From contig CACPON010000004.1 of assembly GCA_902635645.1 (NCBI GenBank), forward strand, positions 1 through 59,072: 59,072 nucleotides of DNA, given 5' to 3'. Below, piece after piece: positions 8,401 through 50,093 of the stretch (its first letter is position 1; every line of letters begins with the position of its first letter). This DNA comes from an uncultured SAR86 cluster bacterium (GTDB lineage Bacteria > Pseudomonadota > Gammaproteobacteria > Magnimaribacterales > D2472). The notes under the pieces were generated by a model. The model made no database searches. It was not told the DNA's origin and saw nothing but the letters and a program-made list of their open reading frames with translations. The translations under genes were made by a program, and so were the position numbers.

Positions 8401-8406
8401 TATACT

Positions 8407-19354: not shown

Positions 19355-19382
19355 ATGAAAATTTTTGCAACATTCATGTGAC
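19355..19382 (-). promoter_or_regulatory. Pho-box-like direct repeats upstream of the TBDR-phytase pair
   Basis: Minus strand GTCACA-n5-GTTGCA-n5-TTTCAT, 11-bp period. Confidence 0.55.
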
Positions 19383-19397
19383 GTAGATATTTTAGGA

Positions 19398-19426
19398 TTT
19401 ACATTTATACGACAAATGTCGATAAT
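19398..19426 (+). promoter_or_regulatory. sigma70 promoter of tetR with operator-like palindrome in the spacer
   Basis: TTTACA-17-GATAAT ending 6 nt before the ATG; CGACA-aa-TGTCG at 19410-19421. Confidence 0.55.
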
Positions 19427-21330: not shown

Positions 21331-21358
21331 TGTTACATTATTGTAAGTTTTGGTAATT
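21331..21358. promoter_or_regulatory. Pho-box-like repeats in the divergent pit/ppk2 promoter
   Basis: TGTTACA-ttat-TGTAAGT-ttt-GGTAATT, 10-11 bp period. Confidence 0.5.
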
Positions 21359-22245: not shown

Positions 22246-23105
22246 TGAAAATTGCTTCAATTGATATAGGCACAAATGCCATAAAGTCTAAAATTTTTAA
22301 GACCACTCCAACATCAATTGAATTCATAGAAGGAATAAGATCGCCTATAAGATTAGGCTCAAATGTCTTTAAAGAAGGCTATCTGAAAAAAAATAAATTA
22401 AATGAATTAGTAAAAACTTTAAAAAAATATCAAAATAATTTTAATAAAAATCATATAAAAATGTATGAAATTGTTGCTACTAGCGCCTTTAGAGATACTC
22501 AAAACTCAGAAGATGCTAGAAGATATGTTGAAAATAAAATTGAACACCCGATTAGAATAATCTCAGGATTAGAAGAAGCAAAATTAATTAGTCTTCATCC
22601 CAAAGCTCAATCAAAAAATAAAAATGTATTTGTAGATGTGGGCGGAGGAAGCACGGAAATCTATATATACCAAGATGATCAGCATATTATTCAATCATTC
22701 CAATTAGGGGCTGTAAGAGGAATGCTTAATAAAAATGATCTGAGTGAATGGAAAAGATTAAAGAATTGGTTGAAAAAACAAAATAAAGTAGAGTTTTTAG
22801 TTGGTCTGGGAGGCAATATTAGATCTTTTTTAAAAATCTATGAATCAAATAAGATGCCAACTAATGATCTTATTCAATTTGCCAATGAGCTAGGTGCATT
22901 AAGTCTTAATGAAAAAATAAAAAAATATAATCTAGCCAACGATAGAGCTGACGTTATAGATGAAGCATTAAAAATTTATATCGAAATTGCAAAACTTTTA
23001 AAAGTAAAAACTATCAAATCAACTAAATGGGGAGTTTCTGATTCAATTGCAGTAAAGATATTCCATGAGCTCTATTCAGATAAGATAACGATCTCAAGAA
23101 GCTAG
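22245..23105 (+). CDS. ppx: Exopolyphosphatase Ppx/GppA (short form)
   Basis: IDIGTNA, ATSAFR, IISGLEEA, DVGGGSTE, RADVI; TAATG overlap with ppk2. Confidence 0.92.
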   Translation: MKIASIDIGTNAIKSKIFKTTPTSIEFIEGIRSPIRLGSNVFKEGYLKKNKLNELVKTLKKYQNNFNKNHIKMYEIVATSAFRDTQNSEDARRYVENKIEHPIRIISGLEEAKLISLHPKAQSKNKNVFVDVGGGSTEIYIYQDDQHIIQSFQLGAVRGMLNKNDLSEWKRLKNWLKKQNKVEFLVGLGGNIRSFLKIYESNKMPTNDLIQFANELGALSLNEKIKKYNLANDRADVIDEALKIYIEIAKLLKVKTIKSTKWGVSDSIAVKIFHELYSDKITISRS

Positions 23106-23554
23106 TTAAATATCAATTCAGCGCTTACTTTATTGTTAAAGTTTTCATATTTGATATTAGTTATTTCTCTATTGGAACTATTAACTAGTTTTTCTGATAG
23201 AGTAACAGCATCACTGATATTAGTAGATAAGAAACTTATATAAATGGATGAGTTTTTCTCAGTTATATTGAGATCAGTTATATTATCCTGAAAACTGTTA
23301 TCGATAATAATTCTTTCAATATTCTCACTGCTAAGATTTTTTTTGTTATTGGAACTTTCAAAAAGTTTAACTTTATTGTAAACATATTCGTAGTCTGATT
23401 TAGCTTTTGCTAAGTTTATTGAGGACCTGGTATAACTCGAATAAACATTCATAAATGAAAAGTATAGAATAAGAAAAATAATTAAAACAAAGGAAATCAG
23501 AACTAGTTTCCTTTCTCTTTCTTGAAGATTTTTATATAAATTAATTATTTTCAT
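23102..23554 (-). CDS. gspM: T2SS protein GspM
   Basis: LQERERKLVL followed by a TM helix; last gene of the gsp cluster. Confidence 0.75.
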   Translation of the reverse strand: MKIINLYKNLQERERKLVLISFVLIIFLILYFSFMNVYSSYTRSSINLAKAKSDYEYVYNKVKLFESSNNKKNLSSENIERIIIDNSFQDNITDLNITEKNSSIYISFLSTNISDAVTLSEKLVNSSNREITNIKYENFNNKVSAELIFN

Positions 23555-24689
23555 ATTTTAGGTTTAATACTCCATCAATATTGCCATCTGTTGTTTCTAA
23601 GTTTTGTTCAGAAATTTTAATATTTAATTTTTCAGCCCCATTTTTTAATATATTAAATTGAAAAGAAGGCATCGAATTTATCTTTACTTTTGCAGAAGAG
23701 TTTTTTACATCAACTGTAATATCTGAAATATATTTTTCGCCATATTTAAAGAATAAATCTAAATTTGGAAGCTTGATATCAGGTGTATTATTCATAGGAA
23801 CGTTTTCTAAAATTTGATCTATTTGGTTCCTGGGAGCTACCACCCTATTAATATCCTTGCTTAATGAAGAAAAAATATTAAAAGTAGCATCAACAAATAG
23901 TTGAGTATCATGCTTGTTTTTATAAACAAGGTAATTTGGAGCAAGAATTATAAAAAATATGGCTAATAGAGAACTGATTAATTGTGCTCTAGAAAAACTC
24001 ATTTTCTTTATAAATAAATTTAAAGATAAGTTAATTTTAAAAAAATTAGGCAAAGATTCTACTTTTGTACTGTCAACATCCTGAAATACAAAATCTTTAT
24101 TCTCATTTGTAGACTTGAATTTATTATTTAAATCAATGTTAGAACTATAAATTATTGGCTCATAGTTTGGCTTATCATTGACAACAAGCTCTAGATATTG
24201 GTTTAGATTGTTACTGGAAATACTAAAACCGCATTTATTTTTGTACGCAAACATAAATTTTTCATCTATCTGAGTAATAGAATCAGAATCATTAAATGAA
24301 TTAATGAGATATTCCGGAGTAACATGTACTTTATAATTTAAATTGCTTAAATATTGATTTAATTCAGCTAAAAAACTTTTATTTACAACGTATCCTGCTG
24401 CTTCAGAAAGAAAATACTCATTATCAGATACAGAATCAATAAAATTTGAATCAACATCAGAAATAAAATTTGCAATATTTATTTGCTCAGATAAAGAGCT
24501 ATTTTGAATAAATTCGTATGAGGTAACCTCTGAAGATGGAATTAAAACTAACAGCAATTTAGCATCATCAATGTCATCAAGTTGTCTAAGTGAGTTAATC
24601 GTTTTTTTAGATTCATTTTTACTGGTTGCATTGTATAAATGAATTAAATCAAGGTTTGAGCTAAGAATATGTGCTATGTAGAAGTTCAT
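23541..24689 (-). CDS. gspL: T2SS protein GspL (divergent)
   Basis: Position between K and M; cytoplasmic domain (VLIPS..V), single TM, PRNQI periplasmic motif. Confidence 0.7.
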   Translation of the reverse strand: MNFYIAHILSSNLDLIHLYNATSKNESKKTINSLRQLDDIDDAKLLLVLIPSSEVTSYEFIQNSSLSEQINIANFISDVDSNFIDSVSDNEYFLSEAAGYVVNKSFLAELNQYLSNLNYKVHVTPEYLINSFNDSDSITQIDEKFMFAYKNKCGFSISSNNLNQYLELVVNDKPNYEPIIYSSNIDLNNKFKSTNENKDFVFQDVDSTKVESLPNFFKINLSLNLFIKKMSFSRAQLISSLLAIFFIILAPNYLVYKNKHDTQLFVDATFNIFSSLSKDINRVVAPRNQIDQILENVPMNNTPDIKLPNLDLFFKYGEKYISDITVDVKNSSAKVKINSMPSFQFNILKNGAEKLNIKISEQNLETTDGNIDGVLNLKYENN

Positions 24690-25655
24690 TTAGATACCAT
24701 TATAAATTCTTGAGGTAATATAGCTATTATTATTGACTCCATAGTAAATCTTACTAACAGAATCTGAAACATAATCCTCATATGAAAATGATGTGGTGAG
24801 CGTAAATTTTGAGGATGAAAACTCAATATGCATATTTCCATTATCTAATTCATAAGATGGAAATGCTCGCTTAAGATCATTAATATCCCTAAAGCCTTCC
24901 TCGGGAATATTATCCAATATGTATTGAGCATCAGTATATGGCATATTTGAAAACATTGAAGCTAATAGCATGTCATGACGCATTTCAAGTGTGTTTATAT
25001 TTACATTAAGTATATTGTCGGGAAAAACACAAAAATTATCCTCAAAAATGCTCCAACCTATCTTTCTTATAGCTGGAAGACCCTTTAGCTCAGCAAGTGC
25101 ATAAAACAATCTACTACCGGTGTACTCTTTTGGGTTGTTTAATGGTCCAGAATAGTAATAATCTTCTAAGCCATATGCTCTTGGATTAGAGTCACCATCA
25201 ATCCAATCAATAATTTGATCAATAGCTTCATCTGTTAAATTTAAATCGACTTCATTTAAAGTCATTAATTTTTTAAAAACTTCTATGTTCTTTTCATTTG
25301 GTTTAAATTCATTCTTAACTTTTTTGACAATAGAATTAATGTTAAAACAGTTTGAAGCGTCAGTAATTTTTCCTGTAACAATGCCATTATTTAATTCAAA
25401 AATAAAATCATTAAGAAATAATGAATTATTCTTTGCATGTATCTTTGAATTAAATCTAAGTTCGTTATCAATCTTTTTTTGTGCAAGAGATTCAATATTT
25501 CTAAAAATATTTAGAGATACTGTCTGGAATTCAGCATATTGAGCTCTTTTAAATGAAACAAAATAATTGTTTCCAATTAGAACTGCGACTGATGAAAGTA
25601 GTAAAACTATCATCAAAACAGATATTAAAACAACTCCTTTAGTTTTGTAATGCAT
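24690..25655 (-). CDS. gspK: T2SS minor pseudopilin GspK
   Basis: KG|VVLISVL cleavage site, CFNINS, IIDWIDGD, VNINT. Confidence 0.93.
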   Translation of the reverse strand: MHYKTKGVVLISVLMIVLLLSSVAVLIGNNYFVSFKRAQYAEFQTVSLNIFRNIESLAQKKIDNELRFNSKIHAKNNSLFLNDFIFELNNGIVTGKITDASNCFNINSIVKKVKNEFKPNEKNIEVFKKLMTLNEVDLNLTDEAIDQIIDWIDGDSNPRAYGLEDYYYSGPLNNPKEYTGSRLFYALAELKGLPAIRKIGWSIFEDNFCVFPDNILNVNINTLEMRHDMLLASMFSNMPYTDAQYILDNIPEEGFRDINDLKRAFPSYELDNGNMHIEFSSSKFTLTTSFSYEDYVSDSVSKIYYGVNNNSYITSRIYNGI

Positions 25656-26235
25656 AGGTTATGTTCGGATCAATGATCCATGAATACTCTTTATTTTTCT
25701 TTGAAAATTCAATTTTTATCAAAGTAGGAATTTTTTTTGAGGTTATAAGACTAATTGGCCACGATTCATGCCACGAGTTTTCATAGAAGAAAGAGAGTTG
25801 TAAATTTTCAATATCTTTAATTAATTCAATTTCTGTGAAATCGTCTTGACTATAAGGGTTTGAGGAAAAAAATTGTTTTCTGACCAACCTGTTATCAATT
25901 AATTCATAGTTAATTCTTTTAATTGGAGAAACGTCATTAGATATAGATTTAATATTTGAATTAAATATTAAACTATCTGAGTTAATTTGATTTATTAAAG
26001 TTCCATAGAGGTTATTACCGTAAAAATCTTTCATACGAGCATTTACGATTTGTCTAAAATCTCTTCTAATAATGGTTGAAGCTAAGCTTAATTCTTTAAT
26101 TGAATTTAGTTGTGCAGATGTTTCTTGTTCTGACTCTAAAGATGATTTTAAGATATTAGATGATACTATTGCTATCATTGAAAGAATAACCAGTGATACC
26201 AAAACTTCAATTATTGTAAAACCTTTATTATTCAT
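25639..26235 (-). CDS. gspJ: T2SS minor pseudopilin GspJ
   Basis: KG|FTIIEVL, RRDFRQ, W..SWP. Confidence 0.9.
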   Translation of the reverse strand: MNNKGFTIIEVLVSLVILSMIAIVSSNILKSSLESEQETSAQLNSIKELSLASTIIRRDFRQIVNARMKDFYGNNLYGTLINQINSDSLIFNSNIKSISNDVSPIKRINYELIDNRLVRKQFFSSNPYSQDDFTEIELIKDIENLQLSFFYENSWHESWPISLITSKKIPTLIKIEFSKKNKEYSWIIDPNITYALQN

Positions 26236-26614
26236 TAATAAGAAATCCTTCAGATTTATATAAATATTGATTAGAATTTTTTTCTTGAACTAATATTACA
26301 TATTTTATAAGTTCCTCAGAATCACTGGCTTCAAAGGTTTCTTCCCAACGCCATTCTTTACTACCCATCTTCATATATCCTGAGCGAGCATTGCCAATTG
26401 ATGGTTTTTCAATAGTGTGAATTAAAGCTATTCTGTTATTTGCAACTTCCTTAGAGTGATAATAATCATCTAAATTAAATATGGATATGCTTGTAGACAA
26501 AACTAAATTATATAAAACAAGTATTGAAGTGCTTAGAATAAATAAGGCTACAACTATCTCAATTAAGCTAAAGCCTTTTTTAGTAGTTGATAATTTGTGA
26601 TGTGACTTTTCCAT
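26228..26614 (-). CDS. gspI: T2SS minor pseudopilin GspI
   Basis: KG|FSLIEI, VANN, MGSKEWRW. Start chosen at the ATG at 26614. Confidence 0.88.
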   Translation of the reverse strand: MEKSHHKLSTTKKGFSLIEIVVALFILSTSILVLYNLVLSTSISIFNLDDYYHSKEVANNRIALIHTIEKPSIGNARSGYMKMGSKEWRWEETFEASDSEELIKYVILVQEKNSNQYLYKSEGFLINE

Positions 26615-27095
26615 TAGAGTTAATTTCAATTTTTTGAATATAATTATCAAAATATATATTTATATGGCCTCCAGAGTTTTCACCTGAAGGATAAAATAAT
26701 AGCAAAGGTGATTCATCGACGTCTAAATTAAAATCAATCTCAGAGCCATCAAATGACTTAAATGTTTTTTTAAAATTTGTCAGATTCTTCCAATTATTAG
26801 AATACGGATTTGCAACATCTGAAATGACTTTGTTGTTGTTATCAAGAGAGTAAGAAAATTGATTATTATTGTCAGCATGCCAACCTATGACATTACCAGT
26901 GATAATGCTTTCTTCAGATAGATAATGAAAAAATTTAGCAAAAGTTGATTGATTTTTTGAAATCGAAGTAGCTGAGCTGAAATTTAAAAAGATTAGTGAT
27001 GAGGCAATACCTATTACAATGAGAACAACAAGTATCTCTATAAGAGTAAACCCTCTTTTAAAATTATTGCATCCAATTACCGATGTCAGTGTCAT
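26580..27095 (-). CDS. gspH: T2SS minor pseudopilin GspH
   Basis: RG|FTLIEIL, FYPSGE. The start at 27095 overlaps the gspG 3' end (start uncertain). Confidence 0.85.
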   Translation of the reverse strand: MTLTSVIGCNNFKRGFTLIEILVVLIVIGIASSLIFLNFSSATSISKNQSTFAKFFHYLSEESIITGNVIGWHADNNNQFSYSLDNNNKVISDVANPYSNNWKNLTNFKKTFKSFDGSEIDFNLDVDESPLLLFYPSGENSGGHINIYFDNYIQKIEINSNGKVTSQIINY

Positions 27096-27492
27096 CTCCA
27101 GATCCGCCCTCCATTCCATCTGCACCTAAAGTGTATAAATCAAATTTTTTAGATTTTCTTGGTGGAAATTCATAAAGATATTCTCTTCCCCATGGATCTA
27201 GCGGTATAGAAGAAATATAACCATCCTCAGGAAACAAGTAAGGATTTTTTAAGCTACTATTTGGAATTATAAGAGCCTCTAATCCTTGAGAAGTAGATGG
27301 ATACTGAAGTTCATTAAATTTATACATTTCTAATGCTTTTTCAGTTTGAGCCATGTCTGCTTTAATTTTTTCTAAATTTGCTCTTTGGAAAACCGGGGAA
27401 ACATTAATAACAACAATAGTACCTAAAATACCAAGTATAACTAATACAGCCATTAGCTCTATTAAAGTAAAACCTTTTTTATATTTTTTCAT
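27064..27492 (-). CDS. gspG: T2SS major pseudopilin GspG
   Basis: KG|FTLIELM, YPSTSQGLEAL, DPWG, LGADG..GG.G.D.DIGNW. Confidence 0.97.
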   Translation of the reverse strand: MKKYKKGFTLIELMAVLVILGILGTIVVINVSPVFQRANLEKIKADMAQTEKALEMYKFNELQYPSTSQGLEALIIPNSSLKNPYLFPEDGYISSIPLDPWGREYLYEFPPRKSKKFDLYTLGADGMEGGSGDDTDIGNWMQ

Positions 27493-27495
27493 AAT

Positions 27496-28692
27496 TTATC
27501 CTAATGAGAGAGTGTTCATCTGCATTATAGGGATTAGTATAGCTAGAACAATTAACATAATAAAACCACCCATAAAAATTATAACTATAGGTTCCAGGAG
27601 CGATAAAAATACCGATCTTTTAGAGTCTATTTCATTTCTTAAAAAATCTGATGCCTTATAAAACATTCTTACTAAATTTCCTGACTTATATCCGCTAGAA
27701 ATTAATTGCATGAATATGTTTGGAAATACTTTTGTTTTATTTAATGAAATAATAAAGTCTTTGCCCTCAACCACATCATTTTTTGCATTCATCACAATAT
27801 AATGTAAGTATTTATTATTAAAAACTTTCGAAGACTCTTCTAAGGCAATATCTAAATTAGTTCCAGATTCCATAATTAATGCCATGGTGCTCGAAAACCT
27901 TTCAACTTCAGATATTAAGATAAAACCACCAATCAAGGGCAAATTTAAAAATTTTTTATGAGCGGAGATATGATTTTCAATATTTGCTACATGTTTTTTA
28001 TAACCGAATGTAATTAAAAAAATAAGTATGGCTAAAAATAAAAGAATTATAAAAATATTATTTGATAACCCTATTAATAAAGTTGTTATTAAAGGTAGTT
28101 CAGCACCTGCTTTCACAAACTGTCCAATAACTTGTGGTAATACAAAAGTTAACAAAGCAATTATCACTACTATAGAAAACCCTATTAAGATAATTGGATA
28201 AGTTAAAGCTGAAAAAACCTTTTGTCTAATAGATGCACTCTCTTCCAGGTAATCTGCTAACTTATTAAATATTAGATCAAGGCTACCTGATGAGTCTCCA
28301 GCAGTAACCAAAGATGAATATGTATTATCAAAAACATCTGGATACTTTTTCATTGACTGTCCAAGTCTTTTTCCTTGTATTACATCTTCTCGTAAATTAA
28401 GAATAATACTTATTAAATCCTTATTATTTAATTGATCTGCGGTTATTTTTAATGCATCTATAATAGATGTATTCGCCTCAAGGAGAGTAGCTAACTGCCT
28501 CGTCATCAATACAATTTCTTTGTTTTTTATCTTTGATCTAAATGAAGGTCTCCTAGTTGCAACAGTTACACTTACTGGAGTTAATTGAAGTTCTTTTATA
28601 TATCTTCTTGCTTCTCTTTCAGATGAAGCGCTCAGAATTCCCTTTTTCTTTGTGCCACTATTATTTAGAGCAATATAATTATAGGTTGGCAT
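27496..28692 (-). CDS. gspF: T2SS inner-membrane platform GspF
   Basis: TRQLATLL, ALTYP, LLEP..I..MGG..IVLAIL.PI. Confidence 0.95.
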   Translation of the reverse strand: MPTYNYIALNNSGTKKKGILSASSEREARRYIKELQLTPVSVTVATRRPSFRSKIKNKEIVLMTRQLATLLEANTSIIDALKITADQLNNKDLISIILNLREDVIQGKRLGQSMKKYPDVFDNTYSSLVTAGDSSGSLDLIFNKLADYLEESASIRQKVFSALTYPIILIGFSIVVIIALLTFVLPQVIGQFVKAGAELPLITTLLIGLSNNIFIILLFLAILIFLITFGYKKHVANIENHISAHKKFLNLPLIGGFILISEVERFSSTMALIMESGTNLDIALEESSKVFNNKYLHYIVMNAKNDVVEGKDFIISLNKTKVFPNIFMQLISSGYKSGNLVRMFYKASDFLRNEIDSKRSVFLSLLEPIVIIFMGGFIMLIVLAILIPIMQMNTLSLG

Positions 28693-30178
28693 CTTCTTTT
28701 AAATTTCCAACCCTAATAAGTTCTTCTGCTGAAGTAACACCATTTATTAAAAGACCTAACGAGGCCTGATCAATTGATTGATTGTCTTTAAAAACATAAT
28801 TTGAAATCTCATTTTCAGAGGAGTTATTATGAATCATATCTTTTAATACTTTATCTACTTGAATACATTCGGCGATAGCAATCCTTCCTTGATATCCAGT
28901 ATGTGTGCAGTCCTCACATCCTTTAGAGTTATATATTTTTTTACCAGCTGCTAAGTTAAACAGTTTAGCTATCTCATTAGTAGCATCTTCTTCATAACGA
29001 CAATTTAAACACAATCTTCTTACAAGTCTTTGAGAGATTATTGTTCTTAAACTTGAAGCTAAAAGAAAGGATTCAATACCCATATCTCGAAGCCTTGTGA
29101 TTGCAGCAATAGCACTATTAGTATGGACTGTAGAAAGCACTAGATGTCCGGTTAAACTAGCTTGAATACCAATTTGTGCAGTCTCAACATCTCTCATTTC
29201 ACCAATCATAACAACATCAGGGTCTTGTCTAAGAATAGCTCTCAATCCTTTAGCAAATGTATATCCAGTTTTTGAATTAACTTGAGTCTGGCCAACTCCT
29301 TCAAGTGTATATTCCACTGGATCTTCAACTGTTAGAATATTCTGGGAAGAGTCACTTAAATATCGGAGGCCTGCATATAAAGTTGTAGTTTTACCAGAAC
29401 CGGTTGGACCAGTGAATAAGATTATTCCCTCTGGATTTTTTAAAGAGGATTTATAATTTGATAATATTTGCTCTGGTAGACCTAGATCATCAATATTTAT
29501 TTGAGCTGACTGTTTATCTAACAACCTTAAAACTACCCTCTCACCATATGAAGAAGGTAAGGTTGAAACTCTGACATCAACACTTTTATCACCAAGAGAA
29601 AGTGAAACCCTACCATCTTGTGGCAATCTTCTCTCAGAAATATCTAATCCAGAAATAATTTTAATTCTAGAAATTAAAACTGAAGATATTTTACTATCTT
29701 GTGATAAAACTTCTCTTAGAATTCCATCAACCCTATATCTGATTATAATTTTATCTTCATATGGCTCAAAATGAATATCTGAGGCTCTATTTCTGATAGC
29801 CTGACTAATGACTCCATTAATTAATTTTATTATTGGGGTATCATCACCTCCACTTAATAAATCTTCAGTAGCAGTAATTGAACCTGCAAAAGATTGAAGA
29901 TCGAATTCGTCAGATAATTCTTCTGATATGTCATTAGATGTATCATCAGCAGAGAAGGTATTTGTTAAAAGTTCATTGAATTCTTCTGAACTACATTGTT
30001 TAAATGTAAATTCAGTTTTTAGGAACTTAAAAAGTTCATGATAAAGGTCTGGTGAAATTTTATTTGGGGAAATTACCTCGTATCCATCAGGATCCTTAGA
30101 TGCAATGATCTGATTTTCTTTAACAAAGTCATAGGGAAGAATATTAAATTTTTCTCTATCCATGGACGAAAAGGACAT
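28679..30178 (-). CDS. gspE: T2SS ATPase GspE
   Basis: ASDIHFEP, GPTGSGKTTT, LRQDPD, TGHLVLSTVH, two CxxC zinc motifs. Confidence 0.97.
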   Translation of the reverse strand: MSFSSMDREKFNILPYDFVKENQIIASKDPDGYEVISPNKISPDLYHELFKFLKTEFTFKQCSSEEFNELLTNTFSADDTSNDISEELSDEFDLQSFAGSITATEDLLSGGDDTPIIKLINGVISQAIRNRASDIHFEPYEDKIIIRYRVDGILREVLSQDSKISSVLISRIKIISGLDISERRLPQDGRVSLSLGDKSVDVRVSTLPSSYGERVVLRLLDKQSAQINIDDLGLPEQILSNYKSSLKNPEGIILFTGPTGSGKTTTLYAGLRYLSDSSQNILTVEDPVEYTLEGVGQTQVNSKTGYTFAKGLRAILRQDPDVVMIGEMRDVETAQIGIQASLTGHLVLSTVHTNSAIAAITRLRDMGIESFLLASSLRTIISQRLVRRLCLNCRYEEDATNEIAKLFNLAAGKKIYNSKGCEDCTHTGYQGRIAIAECIQVDKVLKDMIHNNSSENEISNYVFKDNQSIDQASLGLLINGVTSAEELIRVGNLKEDANL

Positions 30179-30184
30179 CGCTCA

Positions 30185-32044
30185 TTAATCTTTTGGATTG
30201 GTTAAGTCAATTAGTTGTTGAGATTCACCAGTTAACATTTGTCTAGCTTTTATATAATTGTATTTATCACTTGATGCGGACATGGCTGATTCTGCATCAG
30301 TTATTATAGTTGGTCTTAAGAAAACCATTAGGTTTTTCTTAACAGTAGTTGAGGAAGAGGACTGAAATAATCTTCCAAGAATAGGTACTGATCCAAGAAG
30401 TGGAACCTTAGAAACAGTATCTTGTTTGTCTTCATCAACAAGACCCCCAAGAACTATAATTTGATTGTTATCAACAAGTGCTGTTGTCTCAATTGCTCTT
30501 TTATTTGTAATAATATCTATACCACTCATGGGAACTCCAGCAACACCGGAAACCTCAATTTTAATTTGCATAACAACAGAACTACCTTCATTTATTTGAG
30601 GTGTTACTTCAAGTTTAATACCAACCTCTTGTCTAGATGTAGTTCTAAAAGGATTAGCATTATTAGTTCCCAAGCTTTCACCTGTAGTAATTGGAATTTC
30701 TTGACCAATTATAGAAGTAGCTAACTCATTATCCATTGCCATTAGTGATGGAGTTGCAAGTATGTTTGAATTAGAGTCTTGTGATATTGCATTAATAATT
30801 CCTACAAAATTATCCTTGCCAGGAGTTAAATCACCAAACCCAGCTATCAATCCTTGTGTATTAAGTAACGATGCTGAAGCCGTGGTTGATAAATTTACAT
30901 CAGTTTCATCAGCTGAAGAGCCAATAATTGTTAAGAGATCTGGTCCTGAGCCACCAAAACGAGTTACGCCAATTGGAACACTGTCTTTATCAGTTCCATT
31001 AAAAACAGTCTCAACACCAAGAGAACTGGCGGCAGTCTCTGATAATTCAACAATTATAGCTTCAACCAAGACCTGTGCCCTTCTTATATCAAGCTGAGAA
31101 ATAATATTCCTGATAGTTGCTAAATTAGCTTCTGCAGATGAAATAATTAAAGAATTAGTTTTTTCATGATGTGTTATAACTGTTTTAGCGCCATCATTGT
31201 CAGGTATGAATCCGCTTGAAACAGAATTAAGGATTGCAGCTATGTCAGCAGATTTAGCATATTTTAGGTAAACGACATCAATTGAGTCATCTGTTTTAAC
31301 ATCCTCATCTAGTGATTTGAGTGTTTCGTTAATATTATTAGTGACATATTCATTAGCTGAAACAATTACTGAATTAGATGGATTGAATGGTATAGCTATA
31401 AATTTGTTAATAGTAGGGTTATTTTGGGCTTTTAACTTATCAAGAATTCTGACTGCTTCAATGGAAGATAGGTTATTTAATTTTATAATTGATATTTTAG
31501 CAGCATTATTTTTATCTAAATCCTTTATAAGATCATTAATCCTTTGAACATTGCTAGATCTATCTACAATTAGAATAGAGTTTATTGAGGGGATGCTTGA
31601 TAAATGAGATTGTCTACCCGTTATAGGTTTTATCATTGGCAGAACCTCTTCAGTTGATCTGTTTATTAAAGGTATTACTAATGTTTGATAGTCTCCTGAT
31701 GAGGATACAGATGCGGTATTTTCATCTCTTGTAGCTTCATTCTCAGGAACAATTCTTACAAAACCATTTTCAGAAATTGCACTAAATCCATTTACTTGAA
31801 TTGTTCTTAGATATACATCCCAAACTTGTCTTCTATCTAAATTAGCATTTGAGTATATTGTTATTCTTCCTTTAACTCTTGGGTCTAAAATAATTGTTTT
31901 TTTTGAAAATTGAGCTATATCCTGTGTTACTTTTTTTATGTCTACATCCTCATAGTTAAGAATAAAAGATTCTTGTGTCAATAACACATTTACACTTCCA
32001 AAAAACAGAAATAAGCTCAAAATTATATTTTTAAAAAATTTCAT
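30185..32044 (-). CDS. gspD: T2SS secretin GspD
   Basis: ILDPRVKG, LDIRRAQVLVEA, GIKLEVTPQIN, KVPLLG..P.LG.LF. Start set at MKFF (32044), just after the gspC stop. Confidence 0.96.
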   Translation of the reverse strand: MKFFKNIILSLFLFFGSVNVLLTQESFILNYEDVDIKKVTQDIAQFSKKTIILDPRVKGRITIYSNANLDRRQVWDVYLRTIQVNGFSAISENGFVRIVPENEATRDENTASVSSSGDYQTLVIPLINRSTEEVLPMIKPITGRQSHLSSIPSINSILIVDRSSNVQRINDLIKDLDKNNAAKISIIKLNNLSSIEAVRILDKLKAQNNPTINKFIAIPFNPSNSVIVSANEYVTNNINETLKSLDEDVKTDDSIDVVYLKYAKSADIAAILNSVSSGFIPDNDGAKTVITHHEKTNSLIISSAEANLATIRNIISQLDIRRAQVLVEAIIVELSETAASSLGVETVFNGTDKDSVPIGVTRFGGSGPDLLTIIGSSADETDVNLSTTASASLLNTQGLIAGFGDLTPGKDNFVGIINAISQDSNSNILATPSLMAMDNELATSIIGQEIPITTGESLGTNNANPFRTTSRQEVGIKLEVTPQINEGSSVVMQIKIEVSGVAGVPMSGIDIITNKRAIETTALVDNNQIIVLGGLVDEDKQDTVSKVPLLGSVPILGRLFQSSSSTTVKKNLMVFLRPTIITDAESAMSASSDKYNYIKARQMLTGESQQLIDLTNPKD

Positions 32045-32045
32045 A

Positions 32046-32447
32046 TTATTTTTCTTCATCATTATCAATTCTATACATTTTATTACCATTACGAAATATA
32101 GCGCTATTTTGATTTACTTCAACCAGCTCAAATGTATTATCTAATAACTGACCCATTCCAACTAAATATTCTTTATTCGCCTTCTTTACAATAACAGATG
32201 AATTTTCTCCTCCAGACCGTATTCCTATTAACTTGTAATTAAAGTCAATCTCAATTAACTCATCTGCAACGTAATTTTCATCACTTATTAACGACTGTTC
32301 TGAAATAAATTCCTCAATAGTTATATTACCAATATCCTCTATGACTGGAGTGTTCTTATATGATTCGAACAATAAATATACAAAAAAAATAGATATCAAT
32401 GACAATAATATTAGAACAGTATTTTTAAGAAATTTAAAATTTAGCAT
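32046..32447 (-). CDS. gspC: Minimal GspC-like protein (TM + HR domain, no PDZ)
   Basis: First gene of the gsp cluster; TM helix then YKLIGIRSG..SSVIV...YLVG....L.EV, a GspC/PilP-type pattern. Confidence 0.7.
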   Translation of the reverse strand: MLNFKFLKNTVLILLSLISIFFVYLLFESYKNTPVIEDIGNITIEEFISEQSLISDENYVADELIEIDFNYKLIGIRSGGENSSVIVKKANKEYLVGMGQLLDNTFELVEVNQNSAIFRNGNKMYRIDNDEEK

Positions 32448-35117: not shown

Positions 35118-35155
35118 TTGTTTCTCCAATAAAATTTATTTGTTATCACTCTTAT

Positions 35156-38179: not shown

Positions 38180-38238
38180 TGTTAATTAATGCTAATTTAT
38201 TGTTACAGTAAGTGGAGATTTTGTTACGTCTTCGTAAC
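38180..38238 (-). promoter_or_regulatory. Pho-box-like array upstream of the lipoprotein-TBDR-gsp operon
   Basis: Minus-strand hexamers GTTACG, GTAACA, GTAACA, TTAGCA, TTAACA at + positions 38233, 38222, 38201, 38190, 38180 (10-11 bp phasing). Confidence 0.65.
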
Positions 38239-38241
38239 TAA

Positions 38242-40011
38242 TTACTTTGAAACTGGCAGTGAAAACCAAAACTCTGAACCTTTTTGTGGAGCATTCCTTA
38301 CACCTACGTCACCATTAAGACTATTAGCAAGATTTTTTACAATTGCTAAACCCAATCCGCTTCCTTTTTTTTCAGATGCTCTTGCTTCAGCCGTTCTAAA
38401 GAATCTATCAAATATCAAAGGCTTATCCTCATCTGAAATGCCTTTTCCGCTATCCGTTATTGTCACAACAACATTGTCTTCTTTTTTCTTAGTTTTGGTT
38501 GATATTTCAATTACTGAGTTTTCTTCACTATATTTAAAAGCATTATCTATTAAATTTGTAAGAATACGCTCTAAAGCTTTTTTATCAGCAAGAACTAATT
38601 GAGGTTTTTTTGGACAATTACATTTAATAGAAATATTTTTCTTCTTACCAAGGTGTTTAAGAGAATCAATTACTTGATCAATAGATTCTTTTAAATCAGT
38701 TTCCTCAATAATTAATTTTAGCTCGCCGTGCTCAATTCTTGAAAGATCTAGCAAGTCTGAAACCATTTCTGATAATCTTTCAGAGTTATGTAATATAGCT
38801 TTAGAAAAAACTTTTGCTTGTTTTTTATCGTCTAACGCTCCTTGAAGCAAAGTTTCTGAATTGGCTCTTATAACACTCACTGGAGTTCTAAGCTCATGGG
38901 AAACATTTGATATGAAATCTCGCCTCATTGAACTTAATTGTCTTAACTGGGTTATATCATGTATCACTAAAATAAACTCTTTAGTTGTTTTTGATTGATT
39001 CATCGAAGCTAGAACCCATTTAGTTGTTCTATCACTGTTCTCAATTTCAAATTCAATATCTGCAGATTTTGTTCTTTTAGTTTTTTTGTACAAGCTTTGG
39101 ATTGATTTAATACCTATGTCTTTTATTTGATTGCCAACAAGATCTTCTTTTGAAAGAATTTCTAAAAATTGCTCATTACAGTATGTAACTTCACCTGCTT
39201 TATCTGCAACCATAATACCTTCACCAAGATCATCAAGAACCAAACCAAACTGATCTCTTTGTTTAGCTAAGAGATTAATTTGAGATTTTAGATCTTCTGA
39301 AATTTGTGAAATACTTCTTGCAACGTTACCAAACTCATCAACCCTCTCTGTGGGTAAGGCTTTGATTGAACTTTTCTTCAATGAGCCACTTGCAAGATTG
39401 GATGCTGCGTTTGCTAATTCAGCTATACTCGAATAGGTGTAATTTGCTGCAACTCCACTAGCTATAGTTGCAACCAATAAAGCTACCATAGCAACGAGTA
39501 GAATTGATAAATCGAGACTTTCTATTGCCTGATCAAGATATGTATAGGGAACAGCAATTCTTATAACATTTGGTGATATCTCATTTTTATCTCTAATTGC
39601 AACATACAGCTGTTGTTGGTTTACTGAGCTGCTATATCTTGAGGACCAACCAAAACCGGTTTGCAGTGCCTCAATAAATTCTTCTCTATCGCTATGATTT
39701 TCCAATAAGTCGATTTGATTTTCATCAATATATGAATCACCTATTACCCTTCCATTATTTAAAATTAATGTAACTCTTGAGTTTGATGCATTTCCAAGTC
39801 TATCAGCAATGGAATCAGCATTATTATTTTCTTGAAGCGAGTCTACTTCATCAATATATTCAACTAGCAGTGATGCTTGCTTCTCCAATTGGTCTAAGAT
39901 TTGTTCTTCAAATGTGTTTGTTAAATCTCTCTCAGCAATAATATATGAAATAGTAATGCTTATTGATAGCGATAAGAATATTAATAAAAAGATGCGGGTT
40001 CTTATACCCAT
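38242..40011 (-). CDS. phoR: PhoR-like sensor histidine kinase (periplasmic domain, HAMP, PAS, HisKA, HATPase)
   Basis: RRDFISNVSHELRTP H-box, NLIDNAFKY, D.GKGI, GSGLGL; follows phoB inside a phosphorus island. Confidence 0.85.
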   Translation of the reverse strand: MGIRTRIFLLIFLSLSISITISYIIAERDLTNTFEEQILDQLEKQASLLVEYIDEVDSLQENNNADSIADRLGNASNSRVTLILNNGRVIGDSYIDENQIDLLENHSDREEFIEALQTGFGWSSRYSSSVNQQQLYVAIRDKNEISPNVIRIAVPYTYLDQAIESLDLSILLVAMVALLVATIASGVAANYTYSSIAELANAASNLASGSLKKSSIKALPTERVDEFGNVARSISQISEDLKSQINLLAKQRDQFGLVLDDLGEGIMVADKAGEVTYCNEQFLEILSKEDLVGNQIKDIGIKSIQSLYKKTKRTKSADIEFEIENSDRTTKWVLASMNQSKTTKEFILVIHDITQLRQLSSMRRDFISNVSHELRTPVSVIRANSETLLQGALDDKKQAKVFSKAILHNSERLSEMVSDLLDLSRIEHGELKLIIEETDLKESIDQVIDSLKHLGKKKNISIKCNCPKKPQLVLADKKALERILTNLIDNAFKYSEENSVIEISTKTKKKEDNVVVTITDSGKGISDEDKPLIFDRFFRTAEARASEKKGSGLGLAIVKNLANSLNGDVGVRNAPQKGSEFWFSLPVSK

Positions 40012-40014
40012 AAA

Positions 40015-40707
40015 TTACTCAGGTGTTCTTGAAAATTTGTAACCCACACCTCTGATAGTTTGAACATATTTACCCATGACTCCAAGTTTTTCTCTGAGTC
40101 TTTTAATATGAGTATCAACTGTTCTGGTTGTTACATCAGCGCTATAACCCCAAACATCAGATAATAATTGGTCTCTTGATTGAACCCTTCCTCTTCGATC
40201 AACTAATTGGCGCAAAAGTTTAAATTCTAAGGCTGTTAATGTAATAGATTCATTATCAACAAATACCTCATGAGAATCTACATCAATTACTAAATCACCA
40301 AATTGCCTTTGTACTTCAAGATTTGCTGATTTTTGATCACCTCTTTTTAAAACCGCTTTTACTCTTAATATTAATTCTCTAACACTAAATGGCTTAGTAA
40401 CATAGTCATCAGCACCCAATTCAAAACCAACAACTTTATCAACTTCATCATCTTTAGCAGTAAGTATGATTATTGGAGTGGTCTTTTTTTCTGAATCTGA
40501 TTTCAACTCTCGGCATAAATCTAACCCCGAGCCGTCAGGTAACATCAGATCAAGCAAAATTAAAGAAAATTGATCAGCGTTTATATAGTTTTTACCCTCA
40601 GAAAGTGAGGAGGCACAAGCAACATCAAAGCCCTCTCTTGATAAATTGTATTCAAGAGTTTTTCTAATATCAGGCTCGTCTTCTATAAGTAATATTTTTT
40701 GCAACAT
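40015..40707 (-). CDS. phoB: PhoB/PhoP-like OmpR-family response regulator
   Basis: LLDLMLPD, GADDYVTKPFS, SRDQLLSDVWG, RTVDTHIKRLR, TIRGVGY. Confidence 0.85.
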   Translation of the reverse strand: MLQKILLIEDEPDIRKTLEYNLSREGFDVACASSLSEGKNYINADQFSLILLDLMLPDGSGLDLCRELKSDSEKKTTPIIILTAKDDEVDKVVGFELGADDYVTKPFSVRELILRVKAVLKRGDQKSANLEVQRQFGDLVIDVDSHEVFVDNESITLTALEFKLLRQLVDRRGRVQSRDQLLSDVWGYSADVTTRTVDTHIKRLREKLGVMGKYVQTIRGVGYKFSRTPE

Positions 40708-47006: not shown

Positions 47007-48005
47007 ATGAAAAAAAAATTAAGCATTGCAGCCCTTTTAGTTCCACTGTTATTTTGTAATTTTACCATAGCCAAGACCTATAAGATTGCATTTGGTTCCT
47101 GTCTTGATCAAGAAGACCCTCAACCAATTTGGAATTCTGTAAAGAAAGAAAATATAAATTCTTTTATATTTCTTGGTGATAACGTCTACGGCGACATACC
47201 TTCTGGTAGTCTTGATTTTATGAAAACTGCCTATGCTCAACAAAAAAAAATGTTGCCTGATTGGCTCTTTAAAAAAGATATTAATGTAATTTGGGATGAC
47301 CACGATTTTGGAGAAAATGATGGTGGTGCATCTTACCCACTAAAGCAAGAAGCACAAAAATTATATTTAGACTTCTGGAAAATTCCAATCGATGACATTA
47401 GACAAAAAAGAAAGGGTATCTATACAAATAAAATAATAAACATTGATAATTTCAAAATTAATCTAATTCTTCTTGATACTCGTTACTTTAGATCTGATCT
47501 AAAAAAAACAAAAGGTGTTAAGCCAGTTTATCTAAAAAACGAAGAATTAAATGCAACAATATTAGGCTATGATCAGTGGTCATGGCTCCTTGAAGTCATG
47601 AAAGTTAAATCGGACTTAACCATAATTGCAACCTCGATACAATTATTACCAACAGAACATAGGTTTGAAAAGTGGTCAAACTTTCCATCAGATCATTTGA
47701 AACTTAAAAAGCTATTAAAATCCCATTCGCGCCCTATTGTAGTGATTTCTGGAGATCGACATCAAGGTGCCATATATAATGATGAAAATATTTATGAAAT
47801 TACATCATCATCCTTAAACAAGACTATTTCATCAATTTTTGGAAGACCTAAAGAGGTAGATAAATATATGTTAGGTGAGATGTTTTCAGGTGAGAATTAT
47901 GGTCTTATTACAATCAACACTGATAAAAAAATTGTTGATCTAGAAATTAAAAATATTAAGGGAGAAAGGGTTCGATATAAAAAAATAGATATAAAAAAGG
48001 GCTAA
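47007..48005 (+). CDS. phoD: PhoD-like alkaline phosphatase/phosphodiesterase
   Basis: IAFGSC, FLGDNVYGD, WDDHD, LLDTRYFR, ISGDRH. Confidence 0.9.
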   Translation: MKKKLSIAALLVPLLFCNFTIAKTYKIAFGSCLDQEDPQPIWNSVKKENINSFIFLGDNVYGDIPSGSLDFMKTAYAQQKKMLPDWLFKKDINVIWDDHDFGENDGGASYPLKQEAQKLYLDFWKIPIDDIRQKRKGIYTNKIINIDNFKINLILLDTRYFRSDLKKTKGVKPVYLKNEELNATILGYDQWSWLLEVMKVKSDLTIIATSIQLLPTEHRFEKWSNFPSDHLKLKKLLKSHSRPIVVISGDRHQGAIYNDENIYEITSSSLNKTISSIFGRPKEVDKYMLGEMFSGENYGLITINTDKKIVDLEIKNIKGERVRYKKIDIKKG

Positions 48006-48020
48006 AAATAGCCCTTTTTT
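47993..48020. terminator. Bidirectional intrinsic terminator
   Basis: AAAAAAGGGCTA-aaaa-TAGCCCTTTTTT between convergent genes. Confidence 0.88.
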
Positions 48021-48034
48021 AAAATACTGGTTTT

Positions 48035-48460
48035 TTAGTTCATAACAAGAACTTTATTGCGATAAATAGCATCGCATTGACCAGAATAAAGATTTGCTAA
48101 ATTATTTTGTGACTCAGCCTTAAGATAGTTTACTTTAAGATCACAAGTCAATGAGCTATCAATTAAACCAGTATTTGAATGCTGGATATAATCACTATAA
48201 AGACCAAAAATTACAACGTCATGATGTGTTTTTGATAAATCATCTCTGACAATTATTCTGCCTCTATCTGCTGATGTATAACAACCAACTGATTGTTTTG
48301 GACAAAAGTCCTCTACTATACTTGTATTATATTCAATTTGAATATATCTAGAATCTAAATCTAAATGATCTTTTGCACTTTCAAATATAGCTTCGTTAGC
48401 TAAAGCGGTTGTGCATATCATAAATAATGATGCAAAGATTCCATTTTTAATATATTTCAT
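48035..48460 (-). CDS. Small secreted hypothetical protein (141 aa, 4 Cys in the mature part)
   Basis: AGGAG RBS, Sec signal ending ALA, terminator downstream. Confidence 0.85.
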   Translation of the reverse strand: MKYIKNGIFASLFMICTTALANEAIFESAKDHLDLDSRYIQIEYNTSIVEDFCPKQSVGCYTSADRGRIIVRDDLSKTHHDVVIFGLYSDYIQHSNTGLIDSSLTCDLKVNYLKAESQNNLANLYSGQCDAIYRNKVLVMN

Positions 48461-48475
48461 TTCAACTCTCCTTAA

Positions 48476-48535
48476 TGTTACATTTGTGTGACATTAGTTA
48501 CAATTATGTTACATAGTTGTCACATATATGTCAAA
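48476..48535. promoter_or_regulatory. Six-unit TGTNACA array (Pho-box-like)
   Basis: TGTTACA 48476, TGTGACA 48487, AGTTACA 48496, TGTTACA 48507, TGTCACA 48518, TGTCAAA 48529; spacings 11, 9, 11, 11, 11. Confidence 0.8.
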
Positions 48536-48602
48536 CATTAAAGAAATGATATTTGAATGCTAAATTGTGTATTTTTTATAATTAATCTGTAAAGATACGT
48601 TT

Positions 48603-50093
48603 ATGAGTTCTCTAAATATTATATTTCCAGATCAGCTATCTCTTAGAAATGAGGCTTTGCAAACTGCATCTAATGAAGATCTTTTATTATTCTATGAACC
48701 TCATGATTCCTTTTATGAAATATCTCATCACAAGCATAAGCTTGTCTTTCAAATAAGTGCATTAAGACATTTAATTAATACGATTGATCATAAAAATGTA
48801 AAACATGAAAAGATATCTAAGAAACCATCTAAGTTAATTGAATATCTATCAGAACTATACAAAGAGGTACCCTTTTCGACTGTGAATGTTTCAAGACCTA
48901 GTGATTTTAAAACCCTAAAAGATTTAATGTATTTTTGCCAATCATCGAATGTAGAGCTAAATATATATGATGACAAAAATTTCATCACTTCACCTTCAGA
49001 CTACCAGTATTGGGCTAAAGATAAAAAATCAACAACTCAAGAGTTCTATTATAGATGGTTGCGAAAAAGGAATAATGTTCTTATGGACGATTCAAAACCG
49101 GTTGGTGGTAGCTGGAATTATGATAAAGAAAATCGTCAAGGCATTTCAAAATTAAAGTCATCTATTCCTGAAAGATCAAAAATAATAACTGATCAAATTA
49201 CATTAGAAGTAATGATTGAAGTTCAAGAAATATTTATTAATTCTTATGGAAATTTAGAGAGCTTTAATTGGGCTGTCACGCATCAAGAAGCCTTTAAGGT
49301 GTTTAATGATTTTTTAGATAAATTTTTAACCAATTATGGGGCATTTCAAGACGCTATAAACAAAGAAAATGCATTTATGTTTCATTCACTTCTTTCACCC
49401 TATTTTAATGCTGGACTTTTAGATCCTTTAAATTGTATTCAGATTGTTGAAAAAAAATATCAAGAATCAAATGAATTGATTCCTCTGAATTCGGTTGAAG
49501 GTTTTATTCGTCAAGTTTTAGGTTGGAGAGAATTTATTATGGGTGTTTACTGGGACAATATGCCCCAGTACAAACAACAGAATTTTTGGAATCACAAAAA
49601 AGATCTTACTGAATCTTGGTATAAAGGTGAAACTGGCATTCCACCTCTTGACGGAGCAATAAAAGAATCAATCGAGTTAGGCTATACACATCACATTAAT
49701 CGGTTAATGATAATTTCTAATTTGATGAATTTATCTGGTATTGATCCTAACAATATTCATAAATGGTTTATGGAAATGTATGTGGATACTGCTGACTGGG
49801 TTATGGTACCAAATGTCTATGGGATGGGCACTTTTGCTGATGGTGGTATATTTTCAACAAAACCTTATATTTGTGGTTCAAGTTACATGCTGAGAATGTC
49901 TAATTATAAAAAAGGTGATTGGTGTGATGTTGTTGATGGGTTGTATTGGAATTTTATTGAAAAGAATATTAATTTCTTTAAAACAAACCCCCGATTATCC
50001 CTTATGGTAAATGCATTAAATAAGATTAACCCTGAAAGAAAAAAACTTATAACTGAAAAAGCCCAAGAATTTATATCAAATAATACTGTTTAG
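48603..50093 (+). CDS. Bacterial (6-4) photolyase/cryptochrome of the PhrB/CryB class, FeS-less type
   Basis: FPDQL, HKHKL, EFYYRW.RK, GGSWNYDKENR, EGFIRQVLGWREF, HHINRLM, WVMVPNVYGM, KPY. Confidence 0.92.
   Translation: MSSLNIIFPDQLSLRNEALQTASNEDLLLFYEPHDSFYEISHHKHKLVFQISALRHLINTIDHKNVKHEKISKKPSKLIEYLSELYKEVPFSTVNVSRPSDFKTLKDLMYFCQSSNVELNIYDDKNFITSPSDYQYWAKDKKSTTQEFYYRWLRKRNNVLMDDSKPVGGSWNYDKENRQGISKLKSSIPERSKIITDQITLEVMIEVQEIFINSYGNLESFNWAVTHQEAFKVFNDFLDKFLTNYGAFQDAINKENAFMFHSLLSPYFNAGLLDPLNCIQIVEKKYQESNELIPLNSVEGFIRQVLGWREFIMGVYWDNMPQYKQQNFWNHKKDLTESWYKGETGIPPLDGAIKESIELGYTHHINRLMIISNLMNLSGIDPNNIHKWFMEMYVDTADWVMVPNVYGMGTFADGGIFSTKPYICGSSYMLRMSNYKKGDWCDVVDGLYWNFIEKNINFFKTNPRLSLMVNALNKINPERKKLITEKAQEFISNNTV

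Follow-up and report, generated by a model that had tools for sequence, protein, structure and literature searches.

The window examined here, a stretch of 59,072 nucleotides from an uncultured SAR86 cluster bacterium (assembly GCA_902635645.1, contig CACPON010000004.1), raises a question about one short intergenic region. Six heptamers stand in front of an open reading frame (ORF) of 141 amino acids (aa), and it has to be asked which gene they serve, which protein binds them and whether the binding turns expression up or down. An earlier note on this DNA had described six TGTNACA-type heptamers with spacings of 11, 9, 11, 11 and 11 bp, and both positions and spacings were reproduced. We find that the array is almost certainly a conserved protein-binding operator of the 141-aa gene, as judged from sequence comparison, and that its binder is probably the PhoB-like response regulator encoded in the same window. 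The whole explanation, in which this regulator of a phosphorus island would fill a PhoB-type operator and thereby occlude the promoter, is given a chance slightly short of even. The features needed first are the following.

48476..48535, no strand: six-heptamer array with 11/9/11/11/11 phasing, located by motif search and conserved in orthologue loci
48035..48460, minus strand: the 141-aa ORF, with a signal-peptide-like N-terminus, four invariant cysteines, an HHDVVxxGxxSDY stretch and a zincin-like predicted fold
48603..50093, plus strand: divergent gene for a photolyase-related protein (Pfam DPRP and FAD_binding_7)

The array lies in the 142-bp gap between the 141-aa ORF and the photolyase-related gene. 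On the plus strand its heptamers read TGTTACA (48476), TGTGACA (48487), AGTTACA (48496), TGTTACA (48507), TGTCACA (48518) and TGTCAAA (48529), four being exact matches to TGTNACA and two carrying one mismatch; on the minus strand the four boxes nearest the 141-aa ORF read TGT(A/C)AC(A/T). The array ends 2 nt from the sequence AAGGAG, which itself stands 7 nt before the ATG. Direct repeats of TGT(C/A)A(C/T)N with an 11-bp period, as Pho-box half-sites have, were found here, and the array is fairly named Pho-box-like. The word TGTNACA as such is not enriched in the window (19 exact occurrences against 16.2 expected from shuffles). Because this count is near the shuffle expectation, it is clustering rather than word frequency that marks the array: 4 of the 19 occurrences fall within 49 bp, all in the array, while 300 first-order Markov copies of the window never gave more than 2 exact boxes per 60-bp span, against 4 in the array. 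In the genome holding the window (G000; 887,777 bp, 66% complete), the array is the sole cluster of at least three exact boxes.

Homologues of the 141-aa ORF occur in 36 of 139 genomes of the same family and in 8 of its 10 genera, and the conservation counts rest on 30 orthologue loci of these 36 genomes. When a box pair was required to score at least 10/12 within 110 nt of the gene start, 29 of the 30 loci had one, compared with 11 of 840 upstream regions of other ORFs of G000; the thirtieth locus (L025) carries an exact triple box 10 nt from the matched start. The earlier note had named conservation upstream of orthologues as the check on its claim, and the array came through it. The divergent neighbour, meanwhile, varies. 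It is a photolyase-related gene in 10 loci and a flavin adenine dinucleotide (FAD)-oxidoreductase gene in one, and in the remaining loci a 284-aa hydrolase-like gene, a TetR-like gene or unrelated genes. About 18 of the 30 loci keep the array with no photolyase-related gene within 1.5 kb. Since the array persists without this neighbour, it therefore belongs to the 141-aa gene. It may also control the divergent photolyase, as suggested before, although such control is not what maintains the array. It should also be pointed out that automatic ORF calls run upstream through the boxes in L024, L025, L047, L102 and L103, giving spurious N-termini of the MLHxCN... type, because ATG TnA CA stays in frame.

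The same boxes recur elsewhere, both in relatives and, in weaker form, in the window.

23102..32447, minus strand: type II secretion operon, the commonest array target in relatives
38201..38240, no strand: degenerate boxes directly behind the kinase stop, read by eye; relatives have strong arrays here
19366..19383, no strand: weaker double box (10/12) between the TonB-receptor/phytase operon and a TetR-like gene; exact double boxes stand here in genera g3, g4 and g5
21331..21348, no strand: weaker double box (10/12) between genes for a PHO4-type phosphate transporter and PPK2, from the pair scan

The window as a whole is a phosphorus island, which holds genes for a glycerophosphodiesterase, a phytase with a TonB receptor, the PHO4 transporter, PPK2, Ppx, the type II secretion operon, two further receptor-type genes, a two-component system and a PhoD-like gene. 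Outside the array its pairs scoring 10/12 are those at 19366 and 21331 and one inside a gene, a number to be read against the 4.3 such pairs per window that shuffles give. Across the family, the exact double box TGTNACA-N4-TGTNACA was present in 66 of 139 genomes, as against 6 of 139 for the reversed pattern. We examined 49 double-box loci, namely 30 that the pattern search gave directly and 19 chosen from its list, with about 30 further matches left out. In 19 of them the array lies directly behind the stop of a PhoR-like kinase gene and is followed by a 28-29-aa ORF (WNKFHxFMKSGRLNKV type), a GspC-like gene and the type II secretion operon; in 3 more it follows the kinase and precedes other small secreted proteins, so that 22 of 49 arrays stand behind the kinase. 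Seven occupy the intergenic region of the TonB receptor (phytase) and the TetR-like gene. Five, with a photolyase-related gene diverging from them, precede a 29-aa ORF related to the tiny one and a lipoprotein gene; four, with a divergent oxidoreductase, precede a related ORF of 36 aa. At five loci the array precedes an ORF of 26-41 aa where sister genomes have the 141-aa gene, and at four it belongs to 141-aa gene orthologues. The last two lie elsewhere, one before a short-chain dehydrogenase and one without an assigned neighbour. Runs of three in-phase boxes are common among the 49 loci.

Four pstS upstream regions were also read, from the genomes whose PstS match passes the cut-off. Those of G126 and G129 contain pairs scoring 11/12 and 10/12, 9 nt upstream of a -10-like hexamer, and those of G015 and G112 contain no clear box pair. 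The pstS genes of G015, G112, G126 and G129 (L033-L036) adjoin tRNA-like sequence, and the rare pstS genes seem to lie in acquired islands.

Tiny ORFs of 26-36 aa, basic and with the motif hMK(S/A/E)(G/S), stand directly behind the arrays in 33 of the 49 loci, 32 of which a script picked out. Examples are listed here.

L103:1606-1689, plus strand: tiny ORF
L066:1539-1625, plus strand: tiny ORF
L053:1562-1669, plus strand: tiny ORF
L114:1453-1575, minus strand: tiny ORF

The 28-aa form WNKFHxFMKSGRLNKVxKISG precedes the GspC-like gene of the secretion operon. Variable columns at codon positions 1, 2 and 3 numbered 18, 9 and 24 of 27, and codon differences comprised 803 synonymous and 1133 non-synonymous changes; the sequences suggest that the tiny ORFs are translated. 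Neither they nor two other small secreted proteins had a match in NCBIfam. No tiny ORF was found in G000, where a 984-aa lipoprotein-like gene without a Pfam match (35156-38110) and a TonB-receptor gene (32490-35129) lie between the kinase and the GspC-like gene; in the sister species G112, G113, G115, G126 and G129 the array and tiny ORF lead directly into the secretion operon. On contig C2 of G000, at about 12917-12934, a one-mismatch double box also stands just after a proteorhodopsin-like gene with its terminator, ahead of a gene for a 147-aa secreted protein.

The candidate binder and its partner are encoded in the island.

40015..40707, minus strand: PhoB-like response regulator, candidate binder of the array; its best NCBIfam model is PhoB
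38242..40011, minus strand: PhoR-like histidine kinase with an extra periplasmic sCache-like domain, HAMP and PAS

The boxes resemble sites bound by E. coli PhoB. Among the chromatin immunoprecipitation (ChIP)-bound 18-mers in Table 1 of PMC10294691 are TGTAACCCGTATGTAACA (mglB), TGTCACATTCCTGTCAAT (cspD/clpS) and TGTCATAAAACTGTCATA (pstS), and the half-sites given there, TGT followed by C/A, A and C/T and repeated after 11 bp, include TGTAACA and TGTCACA (PMC10294691). With this resemblance, with their recurrence at phosphorus-island genes and with pairs at two of four pstS genes, the PhoB-type character that the earlier note had assigned to the boxes is borne out. Together with the PhoR-like kinase, the regulator is nearly universal (101 of 139 genomes, 23 of the 26 of high quality), and its recognition helix is invariant across ten genera. 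Among solved structures RegX3 and MtrA are closest to it. Of 5 near-complete relatives, 4 have no other Trans_reg_C protein; G000 and G121 each have a second one, whose partner is a CpxA-like kinase. The boxes also have a direction. Of 139 exact boxes, taken from 53 distinct upstream regions, 110 have C or A at their centre when read on the coding strand of the target gene, and adjacent boxes share this polarity in 40 of 53 distinct pairs, a count to be read with the facts that the pairs are phylogenetically related, that only the central base is asymmetric and that the outer two boxes of G000 are reversed. Shared polarity is the pattern of head-to-tail binders, while an inverted-repeat dimer predicts opposite polarity. 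From these sequence relations we regard the PhoB-like regulator as the probable binder, with a small share of the probability for the TetR-like protein and the rest for another protein or for both regulators together.

As to the sign of control, the position of the boxes on the promoter is informative.

48529..48534, minus strand: predicted -35 hexamer TTGACA of the 141-aa gene (promoter scan), which doubles as the outermost box
48506..48511, minus strand: predicted -10 hexamer TAACAT (promoter scan), 17 nt from the -35 and within a box
48468..48473, minus strand: Shine-Dalgarno sequence AAGGAG, read by eye
48553..48582, plus strand: separate predicted promoter TTGAAT-N18-TATAAT of the photolyase-related gene (promoter scan)

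The top match of the minus-strand scan, TTGACA-N17-TAACAT, agrees at 10 of 12 positions and places the start site of the 141-aa gene at about 48496-48499. TTGACA is kept in all but three of 30 aligned upstream regions, L025 aside (L021, L024 and L028 have TTGACT), while the spacer varies among orthologues. On this predicted promoter one box each covers the -35, the spacer, the -10 and the start site, and two more lie in the 5' untranslated region (5'UTR) near the ribosome-binding site. In the classical register of PhoB activation a box pair stands at the -35 place, about 9-10 nt upstream of the -10. The arrangement here differs from a promoter in which a pair substitutes for the -35 about 10 bp before the -10, as a perfect TTGACA is present. 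The arrays of the secretion operon look alike: in at least 10 diverged loci a TTTAC(A/T)-N17-TAnnnT promoter is preserved, by eye, directly ahead of the first box, with 3-4 boxes in phase occupying the stretch between it and the ribosome-binding site.

In RNA libraries of two studies, contigs stop at 48488, where adapter sequence comes next, and at 48491, which puts at least two boxes in the transcript. These ends, a weak hint, fit a start near 48496-48499 and speak against one downstream of the inner boxes. The alternative -10 TAATGT (48491-48496) was set aside, as RNA contigs extend to 48488 and 48491. On sequence grounds, promoter occlusion is the more likely reading of this geometry compared with classical activation, and if a PhoB-like regulator is indeed the binder, its net effect is fairly likely to be repression. 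The earlier caveat that boxes so close to the ribosome-binding site could mean repression thus turns out to be the better reading, the boxes covering a near-consensus promoter from the -35 into the 5'UTR.

In the mechanism that we propose, a phosphorylated and oligomerising PhoB-like response regulator would fill a multi-site operator of half-sites one helical turn apart. The filled array would exclude or block RNA polymerase at a near-consensus sigma-70 promoter, and the 141-aa gene would run at a high level once the regulator leaves the DNA. The gene would be a member of a phosphorus-island regulon with type II secretion, the TonB receptor/phytase, PHO4/PPK2, the tiny ORFs and, where present, pstS.

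Several observations weigh against this explanation. The earlier note had called the protein at 40015-40707 PhoB; the best model is PhoB, as said, but the score of 242.8 bits against NCBIfam PhoB (TIGR02154) is below the cut-off of 296.2. Likewise, the kinase scores 235.7 bits against NCBIfam PhoR (TIGR02966; cut-off 334.2), and the PnpS and WalK models score higher. No box was found upstream of the regulator gene itself. The coding-strand bias for C or A could stem from 5'UTR composition rather than from protein contacts. The boxes, near-palindromic with symmetric flanks (A-TGTNACA-T) and described before as quasi-palindromic, suit a symmetric dimer such as TetR equally. Presence and absence across the 139 genomes fail to separate the two regulators (PhoB-like 101/139, TetR-like 105/139), and covariation of the DNA-reading helix with box variants is uninformative, both helices being invariant in 9-10 genera. 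In G129:C2 (L138) a frameshift, which may be an assembly error, breaks the regulator gene into two frames near residue 120, yet behind the kinase the array, the tiny ORF and the GspC-like gene are intact. With regard to the sign, the outer two boxes of G000 read TGTCA on the strand of the photolyase-related gene, and a CATAAT (48503-48508) lies 9 nt from them, at the classical-register spot, though it is not conserved in orthologues. Finally, net repression of phosphorus-scavenging genes by phosphorylated PhoB is sensible only if the kinase logic differs from that of E. coli. An inverted kinase logic would, speculatively, make biological sense with a repressing array.

The strongest competing explanation keeps the binder and reverses the sign: the PhoB-like regulator would activate via the outer boxes (48518-48535), and the inner boxes would trim or cap expression at a high regulator level. 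In G000 the outer pair, 9 nt and CATAAT indeed reproduce the E. coli PhoB promoter register, and the pstS promoters of G126 and G129 have the same one; a phosphorus-island context would also suit activation. Yet an activator-dependent promoter is expected to be without a good -35, and the TTGACA here is perfect and conserved. The hexamer at the CATAAT register has no terminal T in L007, L009, L014 and L015, whereas the hexamer 17-18 nt from TTGACA retains, by eye, A2 and T6 in orthologues. Of 12 in-register hexamers read at secretion-operon arrays only 3 have a final T, and a full conserved promoter stands upstream of all boxes. The outer boxes of G000, moreover, have G as the central base on the strand of the 141-aa gene.

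RNA-library contigs were compared as well, with contig word depth, a poor expression measure, serving as a hint only. In run X6 the depth was about 2,650-9,760 over the 141-aa gene, 13-220 over the PhoD-like gene and 0-11 over the photolyase-related gene; the corresponding values were 160-227, 16.5 and 9.2 in run X2, and 41-73, about 14 and 5-41 in run X4. Run X8 showed no depth difference, one contig spanning both genes. The depth of the 141-aa gene is thus far over that of its neighbours in 3 of 4 libraries, which is in favour of activation. PMC10294691 describes PhoB as a dual regulator whose effect depends on site position. Overall, we consider activation through the outer boxes rather unlikely, and retain repression by the PhoB-like regulator as the preferred sign.

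A second candidate binder is encoded beside the phytase operon.

19433..20029, plus strand: divergent TetR-family regulator, the rival binder, from sequence search and prevalence count
19410..19421, no strand: palindrome CGACAAATGTCG, which abuts the -10 of the TetR-like gene and is kept in relatives whatever the upstream neighbour

If this TetR-like protein were the repressor, it would bind the array as symmetric dimers on palindromic box pairs, and the PhoB-like system would be uninvolved here. A repression geometry is typical of TetR proteins, and palindromic boxes with symmetric flanks suit their dimers. The TetR-like protein is near-universal (105/139 genomes and 25/26 of high quality). 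Its gene is immediately upstream of the array and the gene behind it, on the same strand, in G070, G080, G093, G095, G096 and G101, and 7 of 49 loci have exact double boxes in the TetR/TonB-receptor intergenic region. Against this stand several facts about the DNA. The conserved palindrome of the TetR-like promoter differs in being ACA-N2-TGT, while the array has ACA-N4-TGT; in the divergent regions the double box adjoins the receptor gene and not the TetR gene; and 22 of 49 arrays lie behind the kinase gene, distant from the TetR gene. The shared polarity in 40 of 53 box pairs is opposite to what an inverted repeat would give, and the common runs of three in-phase boxes speak against TetR dimers too. 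GACAWWTGTC has only 2 sites in G000, and its fuller form with flanks is unique to the TetR-like promoter; by its sequence, CGACAAATGTCG is probably the TetR-like protein's own autoregulatory operator, distinct from the array. We therefore judge the TetR-like protein an improbable binder of the array.

It is far less probable still that the array serves mainly the divergent photolyase-related gene, or a light- or stress-responsive regulator, with the 141-aa gene as a bystander. Arrays in g1, g4 and g9 have as divergent neighbour either a photolyase-related gene or an FAD-oxidoreductase gene with one behind it, whether the 141-aa gene or a tiny ORF lies on the other side, and 18-20 nt separate the outer box from the oxidoreductase ATG in g4. 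But the array survives without such a neighbour in the majority of orthologue loci, box polarity follows the 141-aa gene or tiny ORF, and the photolyase-related gene has a predicted promoter of its own. Two light-sensing candidates were tried in this connection. An operator for a CarH/LitR-type light repressor was dropped, as G000 has no MerR_1 domain (a weak argument at 66% completeness) and arrays persist without a photolyase-related neighbour; a LOV-type light-sensing kinase was rejected, as the PAS domain shows, by eye, no LOV-type motif and has a PhoR-like look. That the array is not protein-binding DNA at all, being instead a 5'UTR RNA element or AT-rich repeat noise, can practically be dismissed: at least two boxes are transcribed and all are self-complementary, but the array has no Rfam match, the predicted 5'UTR has no better fold than shuffled sequences have (z = -0.71), conservation extends to boxes upstream of the -10, and the double box occurs in 66/139 genomes against 6/139 for the reversed control.

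Two features complete the surroundings of the 141-aa gene.

47992..48021, no strand: hairpin terminator common to the convergent genes (terminator prediction)
47007..48005, plus strand: convergent gene for a PhoD-like metallophosphatase (Pfam PhoD 43.5 bits, cut-off 27)

The N-terminus of the 141-aa protein, read by eye, has a basic stretch, a hydrophobic stretch and then ALA|NE, and on our own reading the protein appears to be secreted. This signal-like start and the hairpin at 47992-48021 agree with the description of a secreted 141-aa ORF that converges on phoD over a shared terminator. The PhoD-like gene is the convergent neighbour in genera g1, g3, g4 and g7. The protein has 88 database homologues, all unnamed, whose labelled sources are marine (Tara, NCBI gammaproteobacterial metagenome-assembled genomes), and it has no match in Pfam, NCBIfam, a PDB profile search or the ESM Atlas. 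Across 33 aligned sequences four cysteines are invariant and the stretch HHDVVxxGxxSDYxQ is conserved.

The AlphaFold model has a mean predicted local distance difference test (pLDDT) of 85.6 and a predicted template modelling score (pTM) of 0.78. The best Foldseek matches were selecase (E 0.12, probability 0.87), jannalysin and abylysin, with E values of 0.12-0.36. VIA-align ranked YbeY (Z 7.9 and 7.5), jannalysin (Z 7.2) and SPRTN (Z 7.0) best and also gave leukotriene A4 hydrolase; its top rows are consistently zincins, the best match having a root-mean-square deviation of 3.3 over 109 residues at Z 7.9, and scores below Z 8 are within the range that can reflect a common arrangement. The zinc motif of YbeY is HxxxHxxGxxH. 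In the conserved stretch H79 H80 D81 V82 V83 ... G86 ... S89 D90, the second and third histidine positions are, in a register set by eye, V and S, and HExxH is absent from the 33-sequence alignment. The minigluzincins (selecase, jannalysin, abylysin) and YbeY thus match the predicted fold best, at the scores just given; the class trait of zincins is a mixed sheet with an active-site helix and C-terminal helices. The protein differs from them in being secreted-like, with two probable disulfides, no HExxH and no sequence-level match. By the model, it may be a secreted zincin-like protein whose canonical metal site has been lost.

The signal input to the proposed system also appears unusual. In the kinase, the PAS, DHp and catalytic parts resemble those of PhoR. 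Two forms of the kinase occur, one of 589 aa with the periplasmic sCache-like domain in the genus of the window and one of about 448 aa without it in a subclade of g9 (L098-L107). In the textbook input, as described in PMC9769906, PstSCAB and PhoU act on PhoR. PhoU (PF01895) was absent from all 139 family genomes, including the 26 of high quality, in a search whose control was positive in 13 of 14 genomes; PstS-type matches were found in 5 of 139 genomes, 4 of them over the cut-off. This is in line with PMC11582366, which has pit as core and Pst as patchy in SAR86. With PhoU absent and PstS rare, the classical Pst-PhoU input to PhoR cannot operate. A tentative and rather doubtful extension would be that, in this abundant marine lineage of very small genomes, without PhoU and almost without Pst, the sole OmpR-family regulator has become an ArcA-like occluding repressor, and that the kinase senses phosphorus status without Pst-PhoU, perhaps via its Cache-like domain.

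If true, this would be a Pho system with inverted wiring, the core regulon of which comprises type II secretion, cationic micro-proteins of 26-36 aa (hMK(S/A)G(R/D)L) and a 141-aa secreted pseudo-zincin, whose gene may be one of those that the cell transcribes most in the sea. Should the geometry prove to be one of repression, the system would offer a clear example of a Pho-type regulator that has changed from an activator into an occluding repressor. So far the phosphorus physiology of the lineage has been known from gene lists only, and what is added here is an operator motif, a first regulon for its PhoB-like system and evidence for the absence of the classical Pst-PhoU sensing route. The tiny ORFs, the secretion operon as main target and the loss of PhoU go beyond the original observation and add to its value. 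The 141-aa gene, the tiny ORFs and the secretion operon may serve as markers trackable in metatranscriptomes.

Compared with PhoB/PhoR of E. coli, the system described here shares 7-bp half-sites that start with TGT and have C/A at position 4, direct repeats every 11 bp, several boxes per promoter, phosphorus-acquisition targets and a PhoR-like cytoplasmic part of the kinase. It differs in that ACA is fixed at positions 5-7, each box being thus palindromic, and in that the boxes overlie a complete sigma-70 promoter and the 5'UTR rather than substituting for the -35. Further differences from E. coli are that PhoU is missing, PstS is rare, the kinase has an extra periplasmic sCache-like domain and both proteins score below their family cut-offs.

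In Bacillus subtilis, PhoP boxes are TT(A/T/C)ACA hexamers about every 11 bp, some of them downstream of the start or on repressed promoters, and the kinase of that system has an extracytoplasmic domain, HAMP and PAS, like the kinase of the window; the host here, in contrast, is a gammaproteobacterium. The closest parallel in geometry is ArcA of E. coli, another regulator of the OmpR/PhoB family with multi-repeat sites that overlap a sigma-70 promoter. According to PMC3798270, an ArcA site is made of two to five direct repeats whose centres are 11 bp apart, and in 52 of the 66 targets that ArcA represses such sites overlie the promoter; the present array has this arrangement on its predicted promoter. 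The regulator of the window is, however, no ArcA orthologue (148.3 bits against NCBIfam ArcA, cut-off 334), and its half-site differs. In Pseudomonas aeruginosa, Hxc type II secretion and secreted phosphatases are induced under phosphate limitation, as stated in PMC9769906. A secretion operon is likewise the commonest array target here (19/49 loci), but induction of Hxc proceeds via classical PhoB with Pst-PhoU, whereas the boxes in front of the SAR86 secretion operon lie downstream of a full promoter.

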